Below, in pieces: positions 12,967 to 24,581 of a stretch of DNA of 64,000 nucleotides. Numbering within the stretch: position 1 is the first letter of the stretch; each line of letters starts with the position of its first letter. A program made the translations under genes and the position numbers. The stretch lies in NCBI GenBank assembly GCA_030535235.1, contig JAUNCL010000001.1, positions 13,518 to 77,517 of the forward strand, given 5' to 3'. The notes under the pieces are model-generated. The model was not told the DNA's origin and made no database searches. It saw only the letters and a program-made list of their open reading frames with translations. The stretch is from Bacillota bacterium (GTDB lineage Bacteria > Bacillota > Clostridia > Oscillospirales > Oscillospiraceae).

Positions 12967-14430
12967 TTACCACGTCAGGTTGCAGCACAGTACAAGACTG
13001 AAAATGGCGTACAGCCCAGTCAGTCCAACCACGCCTTTCCTGAACAGGCACTTCCTGTTTTGCGGTATTTCCTCCCACCATTTCGCCAGAAATACCGCAC
13101 CGATCAGGGCAGTTGGCACAACATACCGAAAATCCATGGTACAGCCAAAGGGATATTGGATGTTGAAATTAATATAGGACCCCATCAACACCAGCCAGAA
13201 GCAGATCAAGACTGTCCATTGAGCCGTGCGATGCCGGATCAACACAAGAGCCATTGCCGCAAGGCTGAGCAGGATCAGCAGCAGATTGATAAGAATCAGC
13301 AGACCCGGGATAACTTTCCCCATGTTAAACGAAAATTCGCCAAATAATGATCCCTTTAACAAGTAGGACCATACATTGTAATCTTCAAATGGATGGTCGT
13401 AAATCTCAAAGTTTTTGATCAGCCCGAATCGTTCCCAAAGGCTATAGCCTCCACAATAAACCTCCGATTCCTCTGATATCCGCAGCACGTAATTGAACGG
13501 CTGTTGGAACAGGATTAGGTTCCGAATGGGATACCACAGCCCCAGCGGGAAGGCGATCAGGCCAAAGACGACGAATTGCCGGATAATCGGCAGCCCATTC
13601 TTTTCCCGGAGGCGGCGGTACAGGACCAGAATCATCACGCAGCCGGTGACCAGGGCAAACACGCCGACAGAGATCTTCGTCATCATACCCAGGCCAAAGC
13701 AGAGAGCCAGCTTCACCAGCGCTCCCCATTCCTGCCGCTTATACCACCGGAGCGTGTAGTACAGAATGGCCGTCATGAACATGACCGCCAACGAATCGTT
13801 GTTCACACGACCGGCCAGGAGATAGTGGTTGGGCAGGAAGGCCGCCAGGCTAACAGCGATCAATGTCGCCTCGTCGCTCAGGCGCAACTGCCGGCACAGA
13901 TTGCGGGCATAGAACAACGTCACAATAGACGCAGCACAGGATACGGTCTTAGCTGCTTCCAGCAACTGTCCGGGATCGGAAAAGCCGCTCAGCGCCCGGT
14001 AGCAAGCCATCGCAATGGCAGAAAGCGCATGGAAAAGCGGGGGGTGATAGAACTGGTAACTGTTGTTGGGCGGCAGCTCTCCCTGCAGCAGATGCAGAAT
14101 ATAGGCCACGTGGCCGTTGCTGTCCAAAGAGCACTTCCCCAAATCATGACCCCGCACGTATGCCGGGGTATAAAGCATGTATCCCACACGCATCAGAATC
14201 CCCAGCACGAGAATCAGCCACAGGAAGATCTCGCTTCGGTCCAGTTCCGGATGCGTCAGCATGATCCAGACCGCGGCGCCAACCATGATCAATACCCCAA
14301 CCTGCATGAGCAGTTGGATCGTCAGTGTGTGGGTTGCCAAAACAGTGGTGAATACTGCGTAAAAAGCGATCAGCATCAGCAGGCAGGAGCCTGCCGCTGC
14401 AATTCTTTCAACGTTTTCTTGCTTCTTCAT
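12967..14430 (-). CDS. GT-C fold integral membrane glycosyltransferase (GT39/ArnT/PMT-like)
   Basis: Multiple TM segments, [31 protein letters not shown]. Confidence 0.75.
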
Positions 14431-15970
14431 GCTGTACCTCTTCGTGATACTCCGATCCGGTATTCACGTTCCACACGCTCTGCTTGTCATAAGAACCGGA
14501 GACGATGGACTGCACCGCCGCGAAGGCCGTCTCCATGGAGTGGTCCATGTTGTTGTAGCGGTGCTGGCCGTTGCGGCCCACACAGAACAGGTTTTGGATG
14601 CCGTCCAGATACTCCCGCAGCTCACCCAGCCGTTCGTAAGTATCAAAGTAGGCCGGATAGGCCTTCCTGACCCGCTCCCTGTGCCAGTCCAGCACCTTGC
14701 TGTTTTCGTCCAGCACGCCGATCTGCTTTAGTTCTCTGACGCTCAGTTCTCCGCATTCCTGTTCGGAGAGGTTCCAGAAATCGTCACCCTCCTCACAGAA
14801 GAATTCCACGCCCAGCCAGACGGTGTCTTCCGGCTTTTCCACCAGATAGGGGGACCAGTTATTGAACACCTGGATGCGGCCCATCTTCACGCCGGTGTCC
14901 TGCACGTAGATCCAGCAATCCGGAATGATGTTGTTCATCGTCAGCAGCTTCGTCTCGTTCTGCAGAGCCAGCCGGTCCACCAGAATACCCATGGTGACGA
15001 AATCCCGGTAGGGCAGACCCTCGGCGACATCCCGAATCTCCTGGGGCACATCGTCCATTCCCGACACCAGGTCTTTCAGCGGCATGGAAGAGATCACGAT
15101 CTCGCCGTCGTAGAGCCGGCCGCCGGCTTCCACGCCCACCGCTTTTCCATTTTCCACCCGAATCTTGTCCACGCAGGCGTGGCGCACCAGCTTTCCGCCC
15201 ATGCGCTCTACCTCTGCCGCAGTGGTCTCCCACAGCTGACCGGGGCCGAACTTGGGATAGCGGAAGGATTCGATCAGCGATGTCTCCACATGGCCGGTGT
15301 CCTTGCTGCCGAAGGTCTTCCGAAACACATCCGCAATCAAAGCGCGGATAGACAGGCCCTTGACCCGCTGGGCGCCCCAGTCCGGAGCAATAGCGCTGGG
15401 ATGCCGGCCCCACAGCTTCTCCGTGTAGCCCTCAAAGAACATGGAGTAGAGCACTTTTCCGAACCGGTTGATGTAAAAGTCCTCCAGAGAGCGTTCTTCC
15501 CGCTTGAATATAGTCCCCCACAGGTAACTGCAACCTGCCCGTACGGTGGTGACAAGTCCCATATTGATGAAGGTCTGGGGCTTCATGGACAGCGGATAAT
15601 CAAAAAAATGCCGCTGATAGTAGATGCGGGATACGCGGTTTCGCATCAGCATCACCCGGTCCTCTTTGTCCGGATCCGGGCCGTTTTCTGCCACTGCGCA
15701 GGGACGGCCCAAGACCTTGTCATCGTAAGACGGTGAACCCTGATCGGGCATCATGTCTTCCCACCACTTGCAGACCTGGGGATCCTTTGAGAAGAATCGG
15801 TGGCCGCCGATATCCATGCGGTTGCCGCCGTGGCAGACCGTGCGGGAGATACCACCCACTGTTCCACTCTCCTCCAGGACCGTCACATCATAGTCCTCGC
15901 CGCTGCGCAGCAGTTCATAAGCTGCGGTCAGACCAGCCGGACCTGCGCCGATAATCACAACTTTTTTCAT
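14408..15970 (-). CDS. FAD-dependent oxidoreductase of the Glf/HemY superfamily (UDP-sugar mutase-like)
   Basis: IIGAGPAGL Rossmann motif, [39 protein letters not shown]. Confidence 0.8.
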
Positions 15971-16002
15971 AGTTCTCTCTCCCGAATTCTATATTGGCCC
16001 GC

Positions 16003-16413
16003 TTATCTCCGATAGATCCAGAGTTTCCGGACAAAATAATTCCATGCAAACACCAGAATAGTTGCGAAGATCTTTCCTGCTATCTTCGCCAGCCCCACCA
16101 TCTGGACAAACAGGTACATCAGCAGCAGATTGAGCAGCAGACCGATTACGCTGACCGCGTAGATCTTCGCAAGCTCCTGCAAAACGTGCTGCTTTTCCGC
16201 GCCCCGAAACGTCAGGAGCCGTCCCGCCAGCCAGTTGGCGGCGGTGGAGATGGAAAAGGCCAGCACGGTGGACATCAAATAGTGGATATGTGCCTGATAG
16301 GAAAACATGTAAAAGCAGACCCACTCCACAATCGTTGCAATCCCGCCAACGACTAAATAGGAGAACATCTGGCGAAACCCCTGGCTGTTCAACAGTATCT
16401 TCAAGTTCATCAT
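16003..16413 (-). CDS. GtrA-family flippase
   Basis: About 136 aa, 4 TM segments, YLVVGGIATIVEW, WNYFVRKLWIY. Confidence 0.85.
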   Translation of the reverse strand: MMNLKILLNSQGFRQMFSYLVVGGIATIVEWVCFYMFSYQAHIHYLMSTVLAFSISTAANWLAGRLLTFRGAEKQHVLQELAKIYAVSVIGLLLNLLLMYLFVQMVGLAKIAGKIFATILVFAWNYFVRKLWIYRR

Positions 16414-16584
16414 GTACCCATCTCTCTGTTACAATTTCCTGCTGGTTTATAAAATGCGGTTAAAGCCAGCGGATAATCAAGTCCCAGCACAATTCCATAA
16501 GGCAGGCCGCCGTGCAGTTCGATAACCGGAACCATGAAAGCAGGGGGCTTAGCCAGTTTTCCAACTGTGGTTGCTGTTAGATTT

Positions 16585-17790
16585 TCAAGTATTTCTTTTT
16601 CCTGTGCAGGGGATTCCTTCTTGTGTTTTTTCTATCATACCGGGTTGATACTCTTTTTTCAAAAAATAGATATATGCACAGTATAAAAACAGGTTTGCAC
16701 ATGTTAAGAAAGACCAGTTTCCGGAAATCCCAAATAAATATATTCCGTATGTATTCATGCTGATGGCAAGCAAACCCGTACACAGAGGGATCGTCTTCGG
16801 GATCAAGATTGCTAAAATAATTGCCAATACTTCGTACAGATATCCGTATCGTTCGTGCATGGACGGCAAGAATAGTACGCACGTATACACCAGCAGGAAC
16901 GCCATCATCCACAGATTCTTCCCTGTTGGCGCGTAAGCTTTCCTGATCCACCAAACCATCAGCATTGCCAAAACAAATACTGCCACAATAATGGCAGCAT
17001 TTTTCAGGTATGCATATTGTGTCTGTTCCTGCGCCTGACACAAAAGCAGCCACGGAGACGGGTAATTCATTGACATCGCCTGATACGTACCGGTTTGATT
17101 GAAATAAATTTTAACTACCTCAGTCAGACTTCTCCCCCACAGGACGATGGGCGATGACAAAATCGCCATGGTACAAGGAACAAGCAAAAACCGGGCGGCA
17201 GAAAACTTCCGCTCCGTGAAATACACAAACAGGAAGAGCGGCAGTACAAATACAGCCTGCAGCTTAAATGCAAAACTGACCCCCAAAAAACACATCGCCT
17301 TGTTATACTGTTTTCTTTCCAAATGCAGGATAGCCAACAGTGCAAAAGCACTGTAAATCGCATCGCATTGTGCCCATGCCGCCGAGTTCAGAAAAACGAT
17401 AGGAGACAGCAGCACCGCGCAATATGCAAGGCACCCGGCCCATTCTCTCTCTTGCGTTGAGATGCGGCGAACGATCACGCCGGCAGTAATTGCAAGGACC
17501 CAGTCAAAAACGCACGAACAGATCTTATACGCATATAGAGAGGGGATCTGTATTTTAGTCAATATCCAGATGATGAATTGATAGAGGAAATTGTAGTCGC
17601 CAACCTGTTGGGACAATCCGTTGGCGGAGATCAAGTTATACCACGGCAGCAGAAAGATATTGTAATCGTCGCTGACGATCTCCCGCAGCGAAACCCGGAC
17701 GGCAATTCCCAAAAGCGTACACAAAGCCGCCAGCAAAAGCGGAAGGTGCCGGTCCGCGAAATCAAGAATTCTCTTTTCAAATTTGGTCAT
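16585..17790 (-). CDS. GT-C fold membrane glycosyltransferase (mannosyltransferase/GT87-like)
   Basis: Polytopic membrane protein with SDDY, GDYN, NSAAWAQCDAIY, FKLQA and HERY motifs. Lower GC than its neighbours. Confidence 0.65.
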   Translation of the reverse strand: MTKFEKRILDFADRHLPLLLAALCTLLGIAVRVSLREIVSDDYNIFLLPWYNLISANGLSQQVGDYNFLYQFIIWILTKIQIPSLYAYKICSCVFDWVLAITAGVIVRRISTQEREWAGCLAYCAVLLSPIVFLNSAAWAQCDAIYSAFALLAILHLERKQYNKAMCFLGVSFAFKLQAVFVLPLFLFVYFTERKFSAARFLLVPCTMAILSSPIVLWGRSLTEVVKIYFNQTGTYQAMSMNYPSPWLLLCQAQEQTQYAYLKNAAIIVAVFVLAMLMVWWIRKAYAPTGKNLWMMAFLLVYTCVLFLPSMHERYGYLYEVLAIILAILIPKTIPLCTGLLAISMNTYGIYLFGISGNWSFLTCANLFLYCAYIYFLKKEYQPGMIEKTQEGIPCTGKRNT

Positions 17791-17806
17791 AGACGCTCCT
17801 TATTGC

Positions 17807-18223
17807 TCATACAGATCGCTTTCCCCGAAACGCAAAGAACCGCTGCCCCAGGTAATTCAGGCCGGTATACAGGCACATGCCCACCAGCATCGCTATATTC
17901 TCCTGAACGCGCACAGCCTGTCCTTCCAAAAGCCGCATCACAAGGGGCTTTGCCAGACCGTATCCCAGCAGGTAGCATACTGCGACATTGAGCGCGAATT
18001 TCCACACCTGTGCCCATTCCCACTTTTTGTTCTCAAACGTAAAATATTTGTTCAGGAAAAAGCTCACGATCCCGCCGACAATATAGTTGGCGGCAGAAGA
18101 AACCCAGTAGGAGCAGTGGGCCAGATTATACAGCAGGAACATTGTCCCGCAACCAACCAACGTGTTAAACACGCCTACGATCAAAAACTTGAAAAGTGTG
18201 TTATCCTTCCAGTTTATCCTCAT
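17807..18223 (-). CDS. GtrA-family flippase
   Basis: FLIVGVFNTLVG, SFFLNKYFTF, NYLGQRFFAF. The GTG start overlaps the upstream stop. Confidence 0.87.
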   Translation of the reverse strand: MRINWKDNTLFKFLIVGVFNTLVGCGTMFLLYNLAHCSYWVSSAANYIVGGIVSFFLNKYFTFENKKWEWAQVWKFALNVAVCYLLGYGLAKPLVMRLLEGQAVRVQENIAMLVGMCLYTGLNYLGQRFFAFRGKRSV

Positions 18224-19188
18224 ACGCGGCCCTCAGAGTTCTTATCATCGAGAATTTCACGGATAATGAAGCGGGGACGGTCCTTCGTCTCCAGATAGAT
18301 CTTTCCGATATATTCTCCGATCACGCCGAGAGACAGCAGGATCAGGCTGCCGATGGCCCACACGGAGCAGATCACACTGGCCCAGCCCGCCACGGTATTG
18401 CCCGCAAACCATTGTACGATAAAATGAATCAGCATCAGGATGCTGATGGCGAAAATCAGAAAGCCCAGCGCCGTGATACACTGCAGCGGCTTTGTGGACA
18501 GGGACGTAATACCCTCCGCCGCAAAAGCCAGCATTTTCTTCAGCGGATACTTGCTCTCGCCCGCGAAGCGCTCTCCCCGCTCATACTCCACCACGCCGGT
18601 CTGATAGCCGATCATAGGCACGATGCCCCGCAGGAAAAGATTCACTTCCTTGAACTGGGCAAGGCCCTCCAGGGTCCGTTTGGACATCAGGCGGTAGTCC
18701 GCGTGGTTGAACACCGTATCAGCACCCAAAAAGCTCATGGCGCGGTAAAAGCTCTCTGCGGTGAATTTTTTGAAGAACGTGTCCTGCTCCCGCGAAGATC
18801 GCACGCCGTACACAATGTCGCAGCCGGCATAGAACTTGTCTATCATCTCGTCCACCGCGCCGATGTCATCCTGCAGGTCCGCGTCCATGGAGATGACCAT
18901 GTCGGCTCTCTCTTTCGCCGTCATCAACCCAGCCAGCAGAGCATTCTGATGGCCCCGGTTCCGGGAGAGATCCACGCCAGAGAATAACGAGTCCTCTTTA
19001 TGTAATTTGCGGATGATGGGCCAGGTCTGGTCCGTCGAACCATCGTTGACAAACAGGACGCGGCTCTCCGGACTGATTTTACCGGACTCTATCAAGCAGT
19101 TCATCTTGTCTTTCAGCCGCCGTGCCGTTTCCGGTAAGACCTCCTGCTCTTTGTAGCAGGGGACCACGATATAAAGAATCGAATTCAT
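18220..19188 (-). CDS. GT2 polyprenol-phosphate glycosyltransferase (GtrB-like)
   Basis: VVPCYKEQE, VNDGSTD, SRNRGHQNAL, SMDADLQD, ADYRLMS, two C-terminal TM segments, GEYIGKIYLETKDRP. Confidence 0.92.
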   Translation of the reverse strand: MNSILYIVVPCYKEQEVLPETARRLKDKMNCLIESGKISPESRVLFVNDGSTDQTWPIIRKLHKEDSLFSGVDLSRNRGHQNALLAGLMTAKERADMVISMDADLQDDIGAVDEMIDKFYAGCDIVYGVRSSREQDTFFKKFTAESFYRAMSFLGADTVFNHADYRLMSKRTLEGLAQFKEVNLFLRGIVPMIGYQTGVVEYERGERFAGESKYPLKKMLAFAAEGITSLSTKPLQCITALGFLIFAISILMLIHFIVQWFAGNTVAGWASVICSVWAIGSLILLSLGVIGEYIGKIYLETKDRPRFIIREILDDKNSEGRV

Positions 19189-19263: not shown

Positions 19264-19294
19264 AAAAGGACCGGGGGTTTCCCCGGTCCTTTTT
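19264..19294. terminator. Bidirectional intrinsic terminator directly after the small peptide gene
   Basis: AAAAGGACCGGGG-GTTT-CCCCGGTCCTTTT. Confidence 0.85.
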
Positions 19295-19341
19295 CTGCAA
19301 TCGTGCGTTGAATCGGCAGCTTAGTCGGCGGTGTTGTCGGG

Positions 19342-19524
19342 TTAGAAGCTGGGGGCGACGCTGGAGGTGTCGCTGGGGTCGCTGGGGTCGCTGGATTCGG
19401 CGCTGGCGGGTTCGCTGGGGGCGTAGCTGGGGGCGACGCTGGAGGTGGAGTAGGAGTTGGTGATTACATCCTGTGCCTCAAACTTCACCACATCCACAGA
19501 CAGGGCTTCGTACAACTTTCTCAT
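19342..19524 (-). CDS. 60-aa Ser/Pro/acidic-rich peptide; candidate RiPP-type precursor
   Basis: AAAGGAG RBS and ATGA overlap with the peptidase stop. Leader MRKLYEALSVDVVKFEAQDVITN followed by a repetitive Ser-rich core. Last gene before a terminator. Confidence 0.75.
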   Translation of the reverse strand: MRKLYEALSVDVVKFEAQDVITNSYSTSSVAPSYAPSEPASAESSDPSDPSDTSSVAPSF

Positions 19525-19979
19525 ATGCCATTTCTCCTTTCTGAAAGATGGTACAGCTTAAGTAACAAGCTGCGTAATATCGTAAACTGCCACAGCTCCC
19601 GGTACAGACGGTACCCGAAGCCGTCACAGAATACTTCCTTGTCATCCCGGAAAATCCGGGTCACCCGGCCGATAACCCAGTCCGGGGATACGCCGTGTTC
19701 CGGTCTGGTCTGGTTGTCTCCCCACAGGGTCAACCCATTTGGCGTAACCGAGCGTACCCGGTGCAGCACGAATCTGCCGTCGGGGCGCTGATAGAAGAGA
19801 ATGTCGTTTTTTCGGATGGGGGAGTCCAGCCGCCGCAGGGAAACCGAGTCCCGTCCCTGCCGCAGCAGGGGCCGCATACTGATTCCCCGGGGATAAAGCC
19901 GGAATTCACCGCCGGAGGCCAGCACCTCCCGAATCAGGCCGTCGTAGTCTGACAGATGTATCGGCTCATTCAAGGGCAT
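19521..19979 (-). CDS. S24/S26-family serine peptidase, no obvious TM segment
   Basis: RGISMRPLL (catalytic Ser), FVLHRV (His general base as in the SipW/SPC type), WGDNQ, VIGRV. Confidence 0.85.
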   Translation of the reverse strand: MPLNEPIHLSDYDGLIREVLASGGEFRLYPRGISMRPLLRQGRDSVSLRRLDSPIRKNDILFYQRPDGRFVLHRVRSVTPNGLTLWGDNQTRPEHGVSPDWVIGRVTRIFRDDKEVFCDGFGYRLYRELWQFTILRSLLLKLYHLSERRNGI

Positions 19980-20235
19980 CCGCCTCTTTCAGCGCCCCAA
20001 GGAAGCGATTCACATCCCCGCGGGCCGTTTCCTCGCTGACGTCGTACTCTGCAACGATGCGCCGTACCAGCTCGTCCATCGCGATACCCTCCTGCAAAAG
20101 CCGAAAGGCAAAAGCGCCGCTCTCATTCAGGCGCATCATGCCGTTAAAATTCTCGCTGGCCTTCCCAGTGGCTGCCACCACATACTGGATACCCACCTTG
20201 CGAAGAATAAAGCCATCCTTAATTTTCATTTTCAT
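19966..20235 (-). CDS. PqqD-family / RiPP recognition element (RRE) protein
   Basis: 89 aa: MKIKDGFILRKV, MMRLNESGAFAFRLL, IVAEYDVSEETARGDVNRFLGAL. Confidence 0.88.
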   Translation of the reverse strand: MKMKIKDGFILRKVGIQYVVAATGKASENFNGMMRLNESGAFAFRLLQEGIAMDELVRRIVAEYDVSEETARGDVNRFLGALKEADALE

Positions 20236-21163
20236 GTTCCTCTTCCTTTCGTTTCTCCTGTTCGGCTTTTTGCCGGTTTTTCTGACGGGTGGCCTTTGCC
20301 TTGTCCGCCGTACGCTTCTTTTTATACTGGAGCTGCTTATCCTTCAAGGCTTCATACTGCCCGGCGTATTCGGGAAGCTGCTGGGCGTACTCCCAGAACA
20401 GCCACGCCATCCGCCCCCAATACATTTCTGTCCAGGGCTTGCCGTTGCCGTTGAAGTGGAAGATTTTACAGCTTCGCCGAACGCGGTCTTCCTGCCGCTG
20501 ACGGGAAATGTCGTGGTCAAAGCAATTATAGACCCGATAATCCGCGAATTTTGTCAGCCCGTAGAACACCGCGTTCAGCACATCTTGATCGCCGTACTTC
20601 AGTTGCTTGTAGAAAAGCACCGGATACTCGTACAGGATGTTGGGGTCAATCTCCCGCCGCTGCCCAGACAGGTCATACAGCAACGTGCCTGCGTTGAAAT
20701 AGATGGTGTCCCTGGGCAGGGTCAACTGCTCTAAGCGCTTGGGGCCAACCCCTCCAGGACCGTGGCGGTTGCAGGCAACCAGCAGCTTGCCCTCAAAATC
20801 TTGATGATAGAATTCCTCCAGCGAGCCCATGACTACCATGTCCACATCCAGGTACAGCACCCGCTCCACGCTTTCCGGCAACATCTCCTGGGCCAGAAGC
20901 CGGTAGTAAGTCTCCCGGGAAATCCATTTCAGATGCAGGGGTGCGTCCTTGAATTTGTCGGGACCCACCGGCAGGAAAATCGCCTTCGCGATGCCGCTTT
21001 CCTCCGCTACTTGAGAAAACCGCTGGATTTCCTCGGTTTTTAGGTCTGCATAGAGCACATACACCCGGATTTCTCTGCACCATTGGTTGTTCACCAGCAG
21101 CGACTTCAGCAGCACCAGCGCGGGCATGTAGTAGTTGGAATTAAAGGATAACAGTATGTTCAT
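20219..21163 (-). CDS. Glycosyltransferase family 8
   Basis: TYYRLL, VLYLDVD, YFNAG, GDQDVLN, HFNGNGKPW. Likely start MNILLSF at 21163 (ATGA overlap). Confidence 0.9.
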   Translation of the reverse strand: MNILLSFNSNYYMPALVLLKSLLVNNQWCREIRVYVLYADLKTEEIQRFSQVAEESGIAKAIFLPVGPDKFKDAPLHLKWISRETYYRLLAQEMLPESVERVLYLDVDMVVMGSLEEFYHQDFEGKLLVACNRHGPGGVGPKRLEQLTLPRDTIYFNAGTLLYDLSGQRREIDPNILYEYPVLFYKQLKYGDQDVLNAVFYGLTKFADYRVYNCFDHDISRQRQEDRVRRSCKIFHFNGNGKPWTEMYWGRMAWLFWEYAQQLPEYAGQYEALKDKQLQYKKKRTADKAKATRQKNRQKAEQEKRKEEEHENEN

Positions 21164-21882
21164 TCCGGGGTTCCCTCCTTTACCGCCTGGTAGGCGCACA
21201 ATACGGACGCTTCCGATATATCGCAGTTCAGAATATAAAACGGGATTGCGCCAACCAGCTTGTCCGCCATATCCAGAAGCCGCAGCATCCGGTCCGGCTC
21301 TTTCGGCATCAGCAGCTGACGGAACAGCAAATCCACCTTCTGGGCGTTGGTAGCCGGAACAACCTCCGGTTCCCGACTTTGATTCAGGAAAAAGATTGCC
21401 TTCAGGGGAGCCGAATCGTTGCAGCCCAAGCCTTCCTTACCCCGCCAGGGGGTTCCGTAGGCATCAAACCGAACCGTTTCTCCGTCACACACCATACGGA
21501 TCAGGGGCTTGTCCCCGTTGATAACCCGAAGCCGGTGACCGAAATGCTGCTGCCACAGCCGGGTCTGGGTGGTTTTTCCCACGCCGCTGGGGGCGAGAAA
21601 GGCGTATCCTTCGCCATCCAGCTCCACCACAGAGCCATGCATCAGGAAAACATCCCGGTCCAGCAGGGCTGTGGCAGCTTTGCGGTGGCAGCAGACAGTC
21701 TCCAGGTAACCGTCGGGGAATACATCCGTCTGTTTGCTTCGTTCTTCCTCCAGTTCTTCACCGGAAACCTGAATACGTAACTGCGCAGGCAGGTCGGTTT
21801 CATAGCCCCGGCACAGCTCGGTCAGATGAGGGAACTGGTTGTCAAATTGCACGGGAATCCCGGCGAGCAAAACATTAACCAT
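21160..21882 (-). CDS. HprK-related P-loop kinase
   Basis: MHGSVV, Walker A APSGVGKT, INGDKPLIR, YGTPWRGKEG. Likely start MVNVLL at 21882. Confidence 0.78.
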   Translation of the reverse strand: MVNVLLAGIPVQFDNQFPHLTELCRGYETDLPAQLRIQVSGEELEEERSKQTDVFPDGYLETVCCHRKAATALLDRDVFLMHGSVVELDGEGYAFLAPSGVGKTTQTRLWQQHFGHRLRVINGDKPLIRMVCDGETVRFDAYGTPWRGKEGLGCNDSAPLKAIFFLNQSREPEVVPATNAQKVDLLFRQLLMPKEPDRMLRLLDMADKLVGAIPFYILNCDISEASVLCAYQAVKEGTPE

Positions 21883-23005
21883 GTCTTCCTCCTTCTCCAA
21901 AAACCGATCTAAGGTGCTGCCAGAAGGATTTCCCGTGCAGCATCATTGAAATCATACGTACGACCCAGAACACAGGCAGCAGAACGGGCGCTTTCTCCAG
22001 AATCAGGTAGTTCCGCCTCATCTCGGACAGGGGACAGAAAAACCGGGGGAGGCAGTAGGCAAAAACCCGAATTACGGGATTGCGGTACGTTTTACTCAGC
22101 CGCTCCATACGATGATGGGTTCTCATCTCCAGGTAACCGTAAGTTCCGGCAGCGCATACCTCCTGAGCCAGCGGTTCAAGCTCATCAGGAATTGCCTGCC
22201 CGGTTTCAAACCAGCACCGGGACAATGCCTGCACTTGCCGCGACAGTTCCAGAAGCCCCAGCGTTTTCAGCTCCCCTTCCAGATAAACCGCGTCCATATT
22301 GGGAAAGCACCGGGCGTAGATGCAGTTATCCAGAATGGAGCGAATACCGCTGCCGCTCTCGGACAGGTGACTGCTCAGATGGACAAGATAAAATAGGTAC
22401 TCATCCTCCGGTTTCAGCATGTACAGCCTGGGTGTCCCCTCCACGGGTATCGCCTTTTCCCAAATGTTTTGATAATAACCAGCGTGTTCATCGGTCTCGG
22501 GCAGGAGAAAGACATGCAGCTCCACCTCAGTATAGGGAGGCTTGAGGTAGGCGGTGTGATGGAAACAGACCTCTTCCTTCCGATAACCCATAGACAGCAG
22601 GACACGTTCCGCCAGAGCTGCGTCCCGGAGATGGATGAGCATATCCAGGTCCGACATCTGCCGGTCGTTGATATCCGGATACCGTTCCTTCAGCCAGCAG
22701 CCCTTTACCGGCATCACATCAATTCCGGCGGCTGTCAGATTCCGAATAATGTCGTCCCGCGCCTGAAGCTGGACAATGCTCTGCGCCAGCAGCAGATTGA
22801 CCCGGTTTTCCCATTGCTTCCAGACCGGATCATCCGGATCGGCGATCAACGGGCAAAGTTCCCGAAATATCAGTGCTTCAATAGAGTGGCTTCTGGAAAA
22901 GTCAAACAGTTCCTGTAGCGATAATCCTTCCGGAACCGGTGGAACCGGTTGTTCCTGCACCAGCGCCCGGATCAGGGATATGGTATAATCAGCAGTTTTC
23001 GTCAT
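21875..23005 (-). CDS. Uncharacterised nucleotidyltransferase (NTP_transf_5-like)
   Basis: PVKGCWLKERYP, RQMSDLDMLI, EVELH, YLVHLSSH. Likely start MTKTADY at 23005. Confidence 0.85.
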   Translation of the reverse strand: MTKTADYTISLIRALVQEQPVPPVPEGLSLQELFDFSRSHSIEALIFRELCPLIADPDDPVWKQWENRVNLLLAQSIVQLQARDDIIRNLTAAGIDVMPVKGCWLKERYPDINDRQMSDLDMLIHLRDAALAERVLLSMGYRKEEVCFHHTAYLKPPYTEVELHVFLLPETDEHAGYYQNIWEKAIPVEGTPRLYMLKPEDEYLFYLVHLSSHLSESGSGIRSILDNCIYARCFPNMDAVYLEGELKTLGLLELSRQVQALSRCWFETGQAIPDELEPLAQEVCAAGTYGYLEMRTHHRMERLSKTYRNPVIRVFAYCLPRFFCPLSEMRRNYLILEKAPVLLPVFWVVRMISMMLHGKSFWQHLRSVFGEGGRHG

Positions 23006-23030: not shown

Positions 23031-23777
23031 TCAGCTGCGGTATGCGTTCTCATACATACGATACACTTCTTCCGTATCCCCAAATGCCATCATTTGACCG
23101 TGATCCAGCCAGATTGCTTTGGGGCAAAGCGCCTTAACCTGCTCCGCGCTGTGGCTGACGAACAGCAGTGTTGTGCCGCCGTCCAGCAGTTCCGCAATTT
23201 TCCTATGGCATTTTTCCCGGAAACGGAAGTCTCCCACAGCCAGCACCTCATCCACAATCAGGATGTCCGCCTTGATAATCGTCGCGATGGAAAAGCCCAG
23301 ACGGGCTATCATACCGGAAGAATAGTTTTTCAGCGGCACGTTGATGAATTCCCGCAGTTCGGAGAACTCCACAATTTCCTCAAAGTGCTGATCCATGAAT
23401 GCCCGGTTATATCCCAGAATGGCGCCGTTCATGTAGATATTTTCCTTCGCAGTCAGTTCCATGTCAAACCCGGCTCCCAGTTCGATCAAGGGCGCGATGC
23501 TCCCGTTTACTGTCACAGTGCCTTCCGTGGGATACATGACCCCTGCCAGAATTTTCAGCATCGTACTCTTGCCGCTGCCGTTTTTTCCAATCAACGCTAC
23601 GGCTTCTCCCCGTTTGACTTCAAAGGACACATTCCTCAGCGCATAGAATTCATTAAAATGCAGTTTCCCGGTGACCAGCTTCACAAAATATTCCTTAATG
23701 GTATCTGTTTTCTGCTCTGCAAGATTGAACCGCATGGCAACGCCGTTCACTTCTATAATCGTATCTTTCTTATCCAT
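23031..23777 (-). CDS. wzt: Polysaccharide ABC exporter ATPase (Wzt/TagH type), short form without a C-terminal carbohydrate-binding domain
   Basis: GKNGSGKST, LIELGAGF, YSSGMIARLGFS, IVDEVLAVGD; 248 aa. Confidence 0.92.
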   Translation of the reverse strand: MDKKDTIIEVNGVAMRFNLAEQKTDTIKEYFVKLVTGKLHFNEFYALRNVSFEVKRGEAVALIGKNGSGKSTMLKILAGVMYPTEGTVTVNGSIAPLIELGAGFDMELTAKENIYMNGAILGYNRAFMDQHFEEIVEFSELREFINVPLKNYSSGMIARLGFSIATIIKADILIVDEVLAVGDFRFREKCHRKIAELLDGGTTLLFVSHSAEQVKALCPKAIWLDHGQMMAFGDTEEVYRMYENAYRS

Positions 23778-23789
23778 GAGGTTTTTTCC

Positions 23790-24581
23790 TTACACGAAGA
23801 GGATGAAATTGCGCTGGAGCTTTCGGAAAACCAACACTCCCACCGTCAGCGACAGCGCGCTGAACCCGAAGCATCCGACCCAGTGTATTGCCGTGGGGAA
23901 TATGCCATACAGCACAACCTCCCGGAAGAATGTCACGTAATGATACATCGGGTTGAAGCGGATGAGAAAAGCAACCCATTCGGGCAGTGCGCTGACGGGG
24001 TAGAAAATAGGTGTCAAATACATCCATGCCATTACCAGAACGCTGTACAAATGCAACATATCCCGGAAGTAGACTGCCAGCGCCGACAGCACCATTCCCA
24101 CGCCCATACAGAATAGCAGCAGCAGAGCCAGAGGAATCGGGAACAGCAGCAGATTCCAGGTCAGCGGCACTCTGGTCAACAGCATTACAATCAGGATCGC
24201 AACGAGACTGAAACTCATGGTGACAAAGCTGGACAAGACCCGCGATACAGGAAAAATGTATTTGGGAATATAAACCTTTCGAATCAAAGCTCCGTTATAG
24301 ATGACAGAGGTCATGGCCATATTTGTGCTTTCATTAAAAAAGGACCATAGCGTCTGTCCGCAGATCAGGTACAGCGGATAATTCTGAATTTTGAAGCGGA
24401 ACATATAGGAGAATACCAGAGACATAATGGTCATCATCAGCAGCGGGTTCAAAAGGCTCCAGATATATCCCAGAAAGCTTCTGCGGTATTTAATTTTCAG
24501 GTCCCGCACCACAAGCTCACTCAGCAGGGGCTTATATCGGTTAAAGTGCTGAATTGTTACGGCGGCTTCAAGGGATTTCAT
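23790..24581 (-). CDS. wzm: Polysaccharide ABC exporter permease (Wzm/TagG type)
   Basis: RDLKIKYRRSFLGYIWSLLNP, YLTPIFYP, FNPM. The ATG at 24581 has a GAAGGAG RBS. Confidence 0.92.
   Translation of the reverse strand: MKSLEAAVTIQHFNRYKPLLSELVVRDLKIKYRRSFLGYIWSLLNPLLMMTIMSLVFSYMFRFKIQNYPLYLICGQTLWSFFNESTNMAMTSVIYNGALIRKVYIPKYIFPVSRVLSSFVTMSFSLVAILIVMLLTRVPLTWNLLLFPIPLALLLLFCMGVGMVLSALAVYFRDMLHLYSVLVMAWMYLTPIFYPVSALPEWVAFLIRFNPMYHYVTFFREVVLYGIFPTAIHWVGCFGFSALSLTVGVLVFRKLQRNFILFV

Follow-up and report, generated by a model that had tools for sequence, protein, structure and literature searches.

The stretch of DNA analysed here, 64,000 nucleotides in length and referred to as the window, carries an operon whose last gene encodes a short Ser-rich peptide. 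The operon is arranged in the order ABC-2 exporter, PF14907 nucleotidyltransferase, HprK-like kinase, GT8 glycosyltransferase, PqqD/RRE protein, S26 peptidase and precursor. The genes share the minus strand, overlap for the most part and have good ribosome-binding sites. The exporter (23031..24581) consists of a Wzm-like ABC-2 permease (23790-24581) and a Wzt/TagH-like ATPase (23031-23777). The LppN/PsmN-like nucleotidyltransferase occupies 21875..23005 and matches PF14907 with an E-value of 3e-41. It is followed by the LppK-like kinase of the ScmC family (21160..21882), the GT8 glycosyltransferase assigned with Pfam (20219..21163), the discrete PqqD-type, LppB-like RRE (19966..20229; PF05402, E-value 3e-15) and a soluble, LppS-like S26 peptidase of the SipW/Sec11 type with 152 residues (19521..19979). 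Pfam and NCBIfam models identify PqqD, GT8, PF14907 and the ABC-2 pair, while the kinase gives a weak match to ScmC. The peptidase matches the archaeal-type signal peptidase I model TIGR02228 at an E-value of 3e-5, below the cut-off of the model. The C-terminal ~35 residues of GT8 (20219-20320) lie outside the Pfam domain and are rich in Lys, Glu and Arg. Downstream of the operon, a set of glycosylation genes extends over 12967..19188, also on the minus strand. Between the precursor gene and a PMT_2 GT-C gene (12967-14430) lie a GtrB/PgfS-like GT2 (18220-19188), two GtrA genes (17807-18223 and 16003-16413) and another GT-C-like gene (16585-17790). A 520-residue FAD flavoprotein is encoded at 14408-15970. 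The GT2 scores 217 bits against the PgfS model, far under the model cut-off of 500 bits.

The precursor gene, which is LppA-like, spans 19342..19524 on the minus strand and encodes 60 residues followed by a stop codon. Its position and the sequence of its product agree with a preliminary description of this DNA. It is present as a single copy in the genome. An AGGAG motif precedes the ATG by 9 nt, and the start codon overlaps the stop codon of the peptidase gene in an ATGA. The operon ends at an intrinsic terminator hairpin (19264..19294, minus strand; -24.5 kcal/mol, z -5.1), which is followed by a U-rich stretch. A word-indexed search returned 94 homologous small proteins of the precursor. 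In codons 1-24, compared among 14 distinct gene sequences, pS is 0.45 and pN is 0.10, corresponding to a pN/pS of 0.22. From the ribosome-binding site, the ATGA overlap, the terminator, the 94 homologues and this ratio, we conclude that the ORF is a genuine gene and that its leader is under purifying selection. Of the features on which the preliminary description had made its reading depend, the leader pattern in homologues and purifying selection, the latter seen in the leader codons, are present.

The leader comprises codons 1-22 (19459..19524, minus strand), MRKLYEALSVDVVKFEAQDVIT, and contains the YxxLxV RRE-binding motif and a DVIT motif, with cleavage predicted after Thr22. Its earlier description as the lasso-type leader of a RiPP precursor is supported. 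Codons 23-60 (19345..19458, minus strand) form a hypervariable core that is 37% Ser, acidic and free of Cys, Gly, Lys and Arg. The preliminary description counted the core from Ser24 and gave 14 Ser, five Pro-Ser dipeptides, two copies of TSSVAPS, V-A-P at positions 7-9 and no Cys, Gly, Lys or Arg; recounting returns every one of these values. Core positions 7-9 are S, V and A if the cut is made after Thr22, or V, A and P if it is made after Asn23, and the first acidic residue is Glu38. The C-terminal residue is Phe and the last three residues are P-S-F. The internal repeats reported earlier are also found. A 22-nt direct repeat encoding TSSVAPS is present in exactly two copies in the window (19425..19446 and 19347..19368, minus strand), compared with none expected by chance. 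The 8-mer CCCAGCGA occurs three times within the ORF, and its window-wide count of 5 against 2.8 expected is not significant. Tandem Repeats Finder reports a period-12 array at 19348-19445 (8.7 copies, 71% matches) and a perfect period-9 array at 19369-19394. Two adjoining 12-bp units, CGCCCCCAGCTA and CGCCCCCAGCGA, are located at 19412..19435 on the minus strand.

Searches against PDB sequences gave no match for the precursor, chance-level matches only (E-value about 0.5) for the peptidase, both with a single sequence and with a profile, and HprK/P at an E-value of only 0.16 for the kinase profile. Predicted structures and Foldseek were therefore used for the two enzymes. The AF2 model of the kinase (pLDDT 91) best matches the HprK/P structures 1kkl, 1kkm and 1jb1, and its P-loop SGVGKTT and the upstream HGS motif are conserved. 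With the AF2 model of the peptidase (pLDDT 84), the structures matched are SipA of S. pyogenes, human SEC11A, LexA/UmuD and SpsB, and judged from this model the peptidase has the S24/S26 fold. Residues Ser34, His73, Asp88 and Glu94 of the peptidase are invariant in homologues down to 31% identity. When the peptidase is compared by eye with the LppS sequence, taken from the supplement of PMC13381572, its motifs GISMRP, LHRV and GDNQxxPE have the same spacing as S29/H68/D87..D93 of LppS. The Ser-His distance is 39 residues in both proteins (S34/H73 in the window peptidase and S29/H68 in LppS), Asp88 aligns with D87 of LppS, and Glu94 is found at the place of D93.

The RRE matches lasso-type PqqD NCBIfam models below their cut-offs, with the best scores among the lasso B1 models, and in the PDB it gives a weak match to lasso B1 structures, the best being TbiB1. 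LppB (9x8z) is not matched at E<=1. These matches and the lasso-like leader are what one would expect of a lasso precursor whose cyclase is encoded elsewhere. However, the genome is 97.7% complete and contains neither PF13471 (B2-type protease) nor a cluster-linked lasso cyclase. Its only full-length gene with an Asn-synthase domain (535 residues) is on another contig and unlinked to any PqqD gene, and the only PqqD gene in the genome is that of the operon. The S26 peptidase occupies the place of B2, and core positions 7-9 hold no Asp or Glu. With no B2 protease, no second PqqD and the only full-length Asn-synthase gene on another contig, the gene content excludes a lasso product, and a cyclase acting from a distant locus has a negligible probability. 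The preliminary claim that this precursor is unable to form a lasso is borne out by the missing protease, the missing linked cyclase and the missing acidic residue.

Alignment of the 94 homologues shows a fixed leader and variable tails. Columns M1, K3, Y5, S9, V10, V12-A17, D19, I21 and T22 are invariant. Ser24, two residues past the invariant Thr, is present in 93 of the 94, the lone exception reading T-G-P-S. Beyond residue 24 there is no alignable sequence, and the cores are abundant in Pro, Gly, Glu, Thr, Asp and Asn. No core among the 94 contains Cys, and 93 have a net negative charge. A loose tripeptide is seen at the C-terminus, with A, P, G or V (85/94), A, E or Q (67/94) and L, R, S, M or F (76/94) in successive positions; this pattern may be an export or recognition signal. 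The core of the window precursor has the highest Ser content of the set, 37% compared with a median of 9%. A profile search of 1.84 billion representatives extended the family to 177 clusters at E<=0.001. Among 142 further representatives at 50% identity, 138 have the motif D-V/I-V/I/L-T, and 137 of these 138 have Ser at +2. The third residue after Tyr is Leu in 75 and Pro in 26, and in none of these further representatives does Ser exceed 25%. The combination of a conserved leader with hypervariable cores, which had been predicted for the homologues, is seen in the 94 close homologues and in the wider family. Ser richness, which the preliminary description had expected of the homologous cores in general, is instead an outlier of this one member. 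Some precursors of the wider family are 100-119 residues long, and in 47 of the 138 representatives Cys-rich cores follow the same leader (Y-x-x-L/P and F-E-A-x-D-V-I-T-x-S). Given these Cys-rich cores, several peptide chemistries in Clostridia seem to share a single type of leader. The leader strings returned no match in the literature.

In 17 distinct close relatives, the peptidases of which are 75-99% identical, the cassette order nucleotidyltransferase, kinase, (GT8), PqqD, peptidase and precursor is constant. Scans with the peptidase gave only eight loci in genome contigs and five in metagenome contigs. The exporter is of the ABC-2 type in most of the relatives, MsbA-like (ABC_membrane and ABC_tran) in L059 and L073, and without an adjacent gene in L005. 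This bears on the reading of the peptide as a primer or anchor for a phospho-glycan polymer exported by Wzm/Wzt. Such a role would suit the Wzm/Wzt-like genes that open the operon and the setting of the locus within cell-wall glycan genes, and LPP clusters of Bacilli are also found in capsule loci (PMC13381572). However, the peptidases of L059, L073 and L005 are 83-87% identical to that of the window, and the cassette has neither a polymerase nor an initiating transferase as a conserved partner. We consider this role very unlikely. Since sister cassettes have an MsbA-like or no adjacent exporter, the ABC-2 pump appears interchangeable rather than tied to the mechanism of the pathway.

A wider search gave 563 related peptidase clusters at E<=1e-5. 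Of 401 sampled genomes of the order, 130 (in 66 of 177 genera) have homologues of the peptidase, which are absent from both other genomes of the genus of the window. This patchy distribution looks like horizontal transfer. The closest relatives of the peptidase (75-99% identity) are on metagenome contigs outside the 401-genome sample. Distant homologues also adjoin kinase and PqqD genes. At 38-50% identity no ORF with the same leader lies directly downstream of the peptidase; at some distant loci precursors are located elsewhere and were found when longer flanking stretches were included. In L022, L023, L029, L032, L033, L035 and L037, a small ORF is situated 19 nt past the peptidase stop codon. 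It begins with MD-x-RQDPQ and contains GCCLCF, and it could be either another precursor type or an out-of-frame artefact.

Two of the related loci show how the cores change. L052, which comes from a different sample, aligns with the window along 7569 bp without a single mismatch; the only difference is one 12-bp insertion, a third CGCCCCCAGCTA unit encoding APSY, next to the adjoining units described above. This extra unit confirms the suggestion in the preliminary description that strains could differ in their internal repeats. L054 is also close to the window, with 97.7% identity in the PqqD protein, 98.7% in the peptidase and 98.5% in the 130-nt 3' flank around the terminator, and yet its core is unalignable with that of the window, the variable segment extending from codon 23 to the stop codon. 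The insertion in L052 and the exchanged core between near-identical flanks in L054 show two routes of core change, slippage and the exchange of an entire core while the flanks stay conserved. In the window, the TAA stop codon of the precursor sits seven codons ahead of a second in-frame TAA (19321-19344). This second TAA is the stop codon of L054, and the conserved 3' flank begins there. It is therefore possible that a premature stop truncated the core of the window precursor, or that the core was exchanged together with its own stop codon.

The composition of the core varies with the presence of GT8. The fraction of Ser and Thr after position 2 is 0.16-0.42 in 12 cassettes with GT8 and 0-0.17 in five cassettes without it. 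A one-sided Mann-Whitney test, calculated before the fifth GT8-less locus was included and ignoring kinship, gives p 0.003. L073, the fifth of these, was predicted from its core to be GT8-less ahead of fetching its context, and it has no GT8. A stricter rule, by which GT8 would accompany only PSYAPS-type cores, was rejected: L057-L059 have GT8 and Thr-rich cores containing Gly, Asn and Lys. Because of these exceptions the claim was weakened to a quantitative trend in Ser and Thr, and because the 17 loci are related and the test makes no phylogenetic correction, the association in these sequences is only suggestive. Cores rich in Pro, Ser, Thr and Tyr, with few or no Lys, Gly and Asn, are found in the window and in L007, L011, L012, L014, L015, L053 and L054. 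In these seven loci a PMT_2-type GT-C gene lies directly downstream of the precursor; in the window it is further off. A flavoprotein 59-60% identical to the product of 14408-15970 is encoded in most of them, including L007, L011, L014 and L015; none was detected in L012, the gene is truncated in L053, and the contig of L054 ends before that point. The PMT_2 GT-C and the 520-residue FAD flavoprotein travel together beside GT8 cassettes in the window, L007, L011, L014 and L015. In L053 (4276-5860) the flavoprotein gene is cut to 34 codons and adjoins a large serine recombinase gene, which suggests insertion of a mobile element beside the cassette. Co-occurrence of the Ser-rich core with GT8, the PMT_2-type glycosyltransferase and the flavoprotein suggests O-glycosylation of the tail, and judging by these gene associations its modification by GT8 and/or GT-C enzymes is plausible.

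The same loci allow a simpler view of the tail as an unmodified, disordered and acidic spacer. Here only the phosphorylated or glycosylated Ser at the head would matter, GT8 would act on the phosphate-linked sugar, and the Ser richness would have arisen neutrally as a C-rich repeat underwent slippage. The cores are indeed hypervariable, low-complexity sequences, one 12-bp slippage event has been recorded, and GT8 also accompanies the only moderately Thr-rich cores of L057-L059. However, the Ser and Thr content of the core tracks the presence of GT8 and PMT_2, including the one case predicted in advance. The avoidance of Cys in all 94 homologues, the acidity of 93 of them and the loosely kept C-terminal tripeptide also indicate that core composition is constrained. 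We regard an unmodified spacer as doubtful.

The gene content is most similar to that of the linear polyphosphorylated peptides (LPP), described in 2026 and characterised in Bacilli only (PMC13381572, Popov et al., Nat Commun). The LPP system studied there is lppA-K-B-S-D-N of Paenibacillus alginolyticus, which encodes the precursor LppA, the HprK-like kinase LppK, the discrete RRE LppB, the SipW-like signal peptidase LppS, the MsbA-like exporter LppD and the NTP transferase LppN, and such clusters are often within capsule loci (PMC13381572). LppS, with catalytic residues S29/H68/D93, cuts after Thr at position -1 and requires the RRE. LppK places several phosphates on core Ser3 only, the substitutions S3A, S3T and S3Y abolish phosphorylation, and the unphosphorylated LppA precursor is cleaved poorly (PMC13381572). 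LppN was inactive in the heterologous host (PMC13381572). In pseudomycoidin, the phosphates are on the terminal Ser, and PsmN is needed for the addition of hexose to phospho-Ser (PMC6993621). Clostridia, GT8 and ABC-2 exporters are not mentioned in the main text of PMC13381572; its supplement has, in minor clusters of the network, a small number of uncharacterised peptidase-RRE pairs from Eubacteriales.

By analogy with these systems, the ORF is likely to be the LppA-equivalent precursor of a Clostridial branch of LPP. The pathway proposed here follows from homology and from the published biochemistry of relatives, while the proposed glycosylation of the tail is drawn from gene co-occurrence only. 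The discrete PqqD-type RRE would bind the leader through Tyr5-x-x-Leu8-x-Val10, and the HprK-like kinase would put one or several phosphates on Ser24 (19453..19455, minus strand; core position 2), the predicted lone (poly)phosphorylation site by analogy with Ser3 of LppA. The RRE would present the junction to the soluble SipW-type S26 peptidase, with the cut predicted after the invariant Thr22. The preliminary description placed the cut before Ser24, following the lasso rule with Thr at -2; cleavage after Thr22, following the LPP rule with Thr at -1, appears more likely. Cleavage after Ser24 is a possible alternative, as T-x-S fits the classical -3/-1 rule of signal peptidases. The PF14907 nucleotidyltransferase would probably attach a hexose to the phosphate, in the manner of PsmN in pseudomycoidin, and the ABC-2 exporter would release the product. 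The hypervariable tail most likely acquires O-linked sugars from the GT8 of the operon, and possibly also extracellularly from the PMT_2-type membrane glycosyltransferase; GT8 might instead extend the sugar on phospho-Ser. The outcome would be a short mucin-like phospho-glycopeptide in which the number of repeat units shifts between strains by slippage.

In this pathway the tail would not be a multi-site substrate of the kinase, and here it differs from the phosphorylation reading of the preliminary description, which regarded the tail as a multivalent acceptor for repeated phosphorylation or glycosylation of Ser. There are 14 Ser in the core and a kinase in the operon, and LPP as well as phosphorylated lasso peptides give several +80 Da species. 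However, all phosphates of LPP are on one Ser near the cut and are abolished by S3A (PMC13381572), and those of pseudomycoidin are on the terminal Ser (PMC6993621). Most homologues have the same kinase (67-83% identity) with tails nearly free of Ser (median 9%), and Ser24 is the sole conserved acceptor and the only invariant Ser near the junction. As kinases of this family act on a specific site, and tails almost without Ser are served by the same kinase, phosphorylation of many tail serines is unlikely.

A more elaborate version of the preferred pathway combines a phospho- or phospho-hexose head at Ser24 with a tail that is glycosylated inside the cell by GT8 and outside by the PMT_2 GT-C using a polyprenyl-phosphate sugar, and that evolves by cassette replacement and slippage. 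We put this forward tentatively, as possible rather than probable. If true, gut Oscillospirales would secrete the product, or carry it on their surface, as a hypervariable glycopeptide subject to diversifying selection, and the operon would be the first LPP-type system with later tailoring enzymes encoded in cis.

The window precursor is the most Ser-rich member of a large gut-Clostridia family. This branch offers hundreds of natural precursor variants on one fixed leader, a clear candidate acceptor Ser, and candidate partner enzymes in cis (GT8, PMT_2 GT-C and flavoprotein) whose presence tracks core composition. It also shows directly that operons nearly identical elsewhere can have their cores exchanged or changed in length. 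The silence of LppN in the published host is possibly due to a missing partner enzyme, and the operons described here are concrete starting points for learning what mature LPP-type products look like. They raise the possibility of strain-variable glycopeptides in gut bacteria.

O-glycosylated Ser/Thr-rich surface proteins include the serine-rich-repeat adhesins, which are extended by GT8 enzymes, the substrates of the S. mutans Pgf system and those of actinobacterial PMT. The window resembles these systems in having a disordered Ser/Thr/Pro-rich acceptor that adjoins GT8, a GtrB/PgfS-like GT2, GtrA and PMT_2. However, the adhesin acceptor is a large secreted protein with a signal peptide, while here it is a leader-dependent peptide of 38 residues, and GtfA/GtfB and the accessory Sec genes of adhesin glycosylation are absent at the window locus. 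The phosphorylated and phosphoglycosylated lasso peptides paeninodin (PadeK) and pseudomycoidin (PsmK/PsmN) share with the window the tailoring pair of HprK-like kinase, which in those peptides places several phosphates on one precursor Ser, and PF14907 protein, as well as an RRE-binding leader of the same type, but they also have a lasso cyclase, a B2 cysteine protease and a C-terminal Ser acceptor, none of which is found in the window.

Compared with LPP, several features argue against the assignment: the leader deviates from the consensus, the RRE does not match LppB at E<=1, the exporter is a Wzm/Wzt-like ABC-2 type rather than MsbA-like, and the third catalytic residue is Glu94 rather than the Asp of LppS. 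The last is a conservative change and is invariant in the branch. The leader motif is YxxP in LPP and YxxL in the window, with YxxP versions of the same leader occurring in other loci of the order. The Thr is 15 residues after Tyr in LPP and 17 in the window, and the acceptor Ser is at +3 in LPP and, as a candidate, at +2 in the window. Relative to the LPP consensus YxxPxVLxHQxIxFETxxS, the window leader retains Tyr, Val at +5, Thr and the Ser after it, whereas Pro is changed to Leu, the spacing shifts by +2 and -1, and the central residues differ. The hosts of LPP are Bacilli, whereas that of the window is a Clostridial, Oscillospirales-type gut MAG. The cores of Bacilli LPP are rich in Gly, Asn, Pro and Lys and basic, those of the window branch are acidic, and the precursor gene is first in the LPP operon but last in the window operon. 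GT8 within the operon, with PMT_2 and the flavoprotein nearby, sets the window apart from published LPP. Set against these differences, both systems combine a precursor with an HprK-like kinase, a discrete RRE, a soluble SipW-type peptidase and a PF14907 protein, with no cyclase. Both are located amid polysaccharide genes, and both have a Tyr-anchored leader, an invariant Thr closely before a Ser, and variable C-termini.
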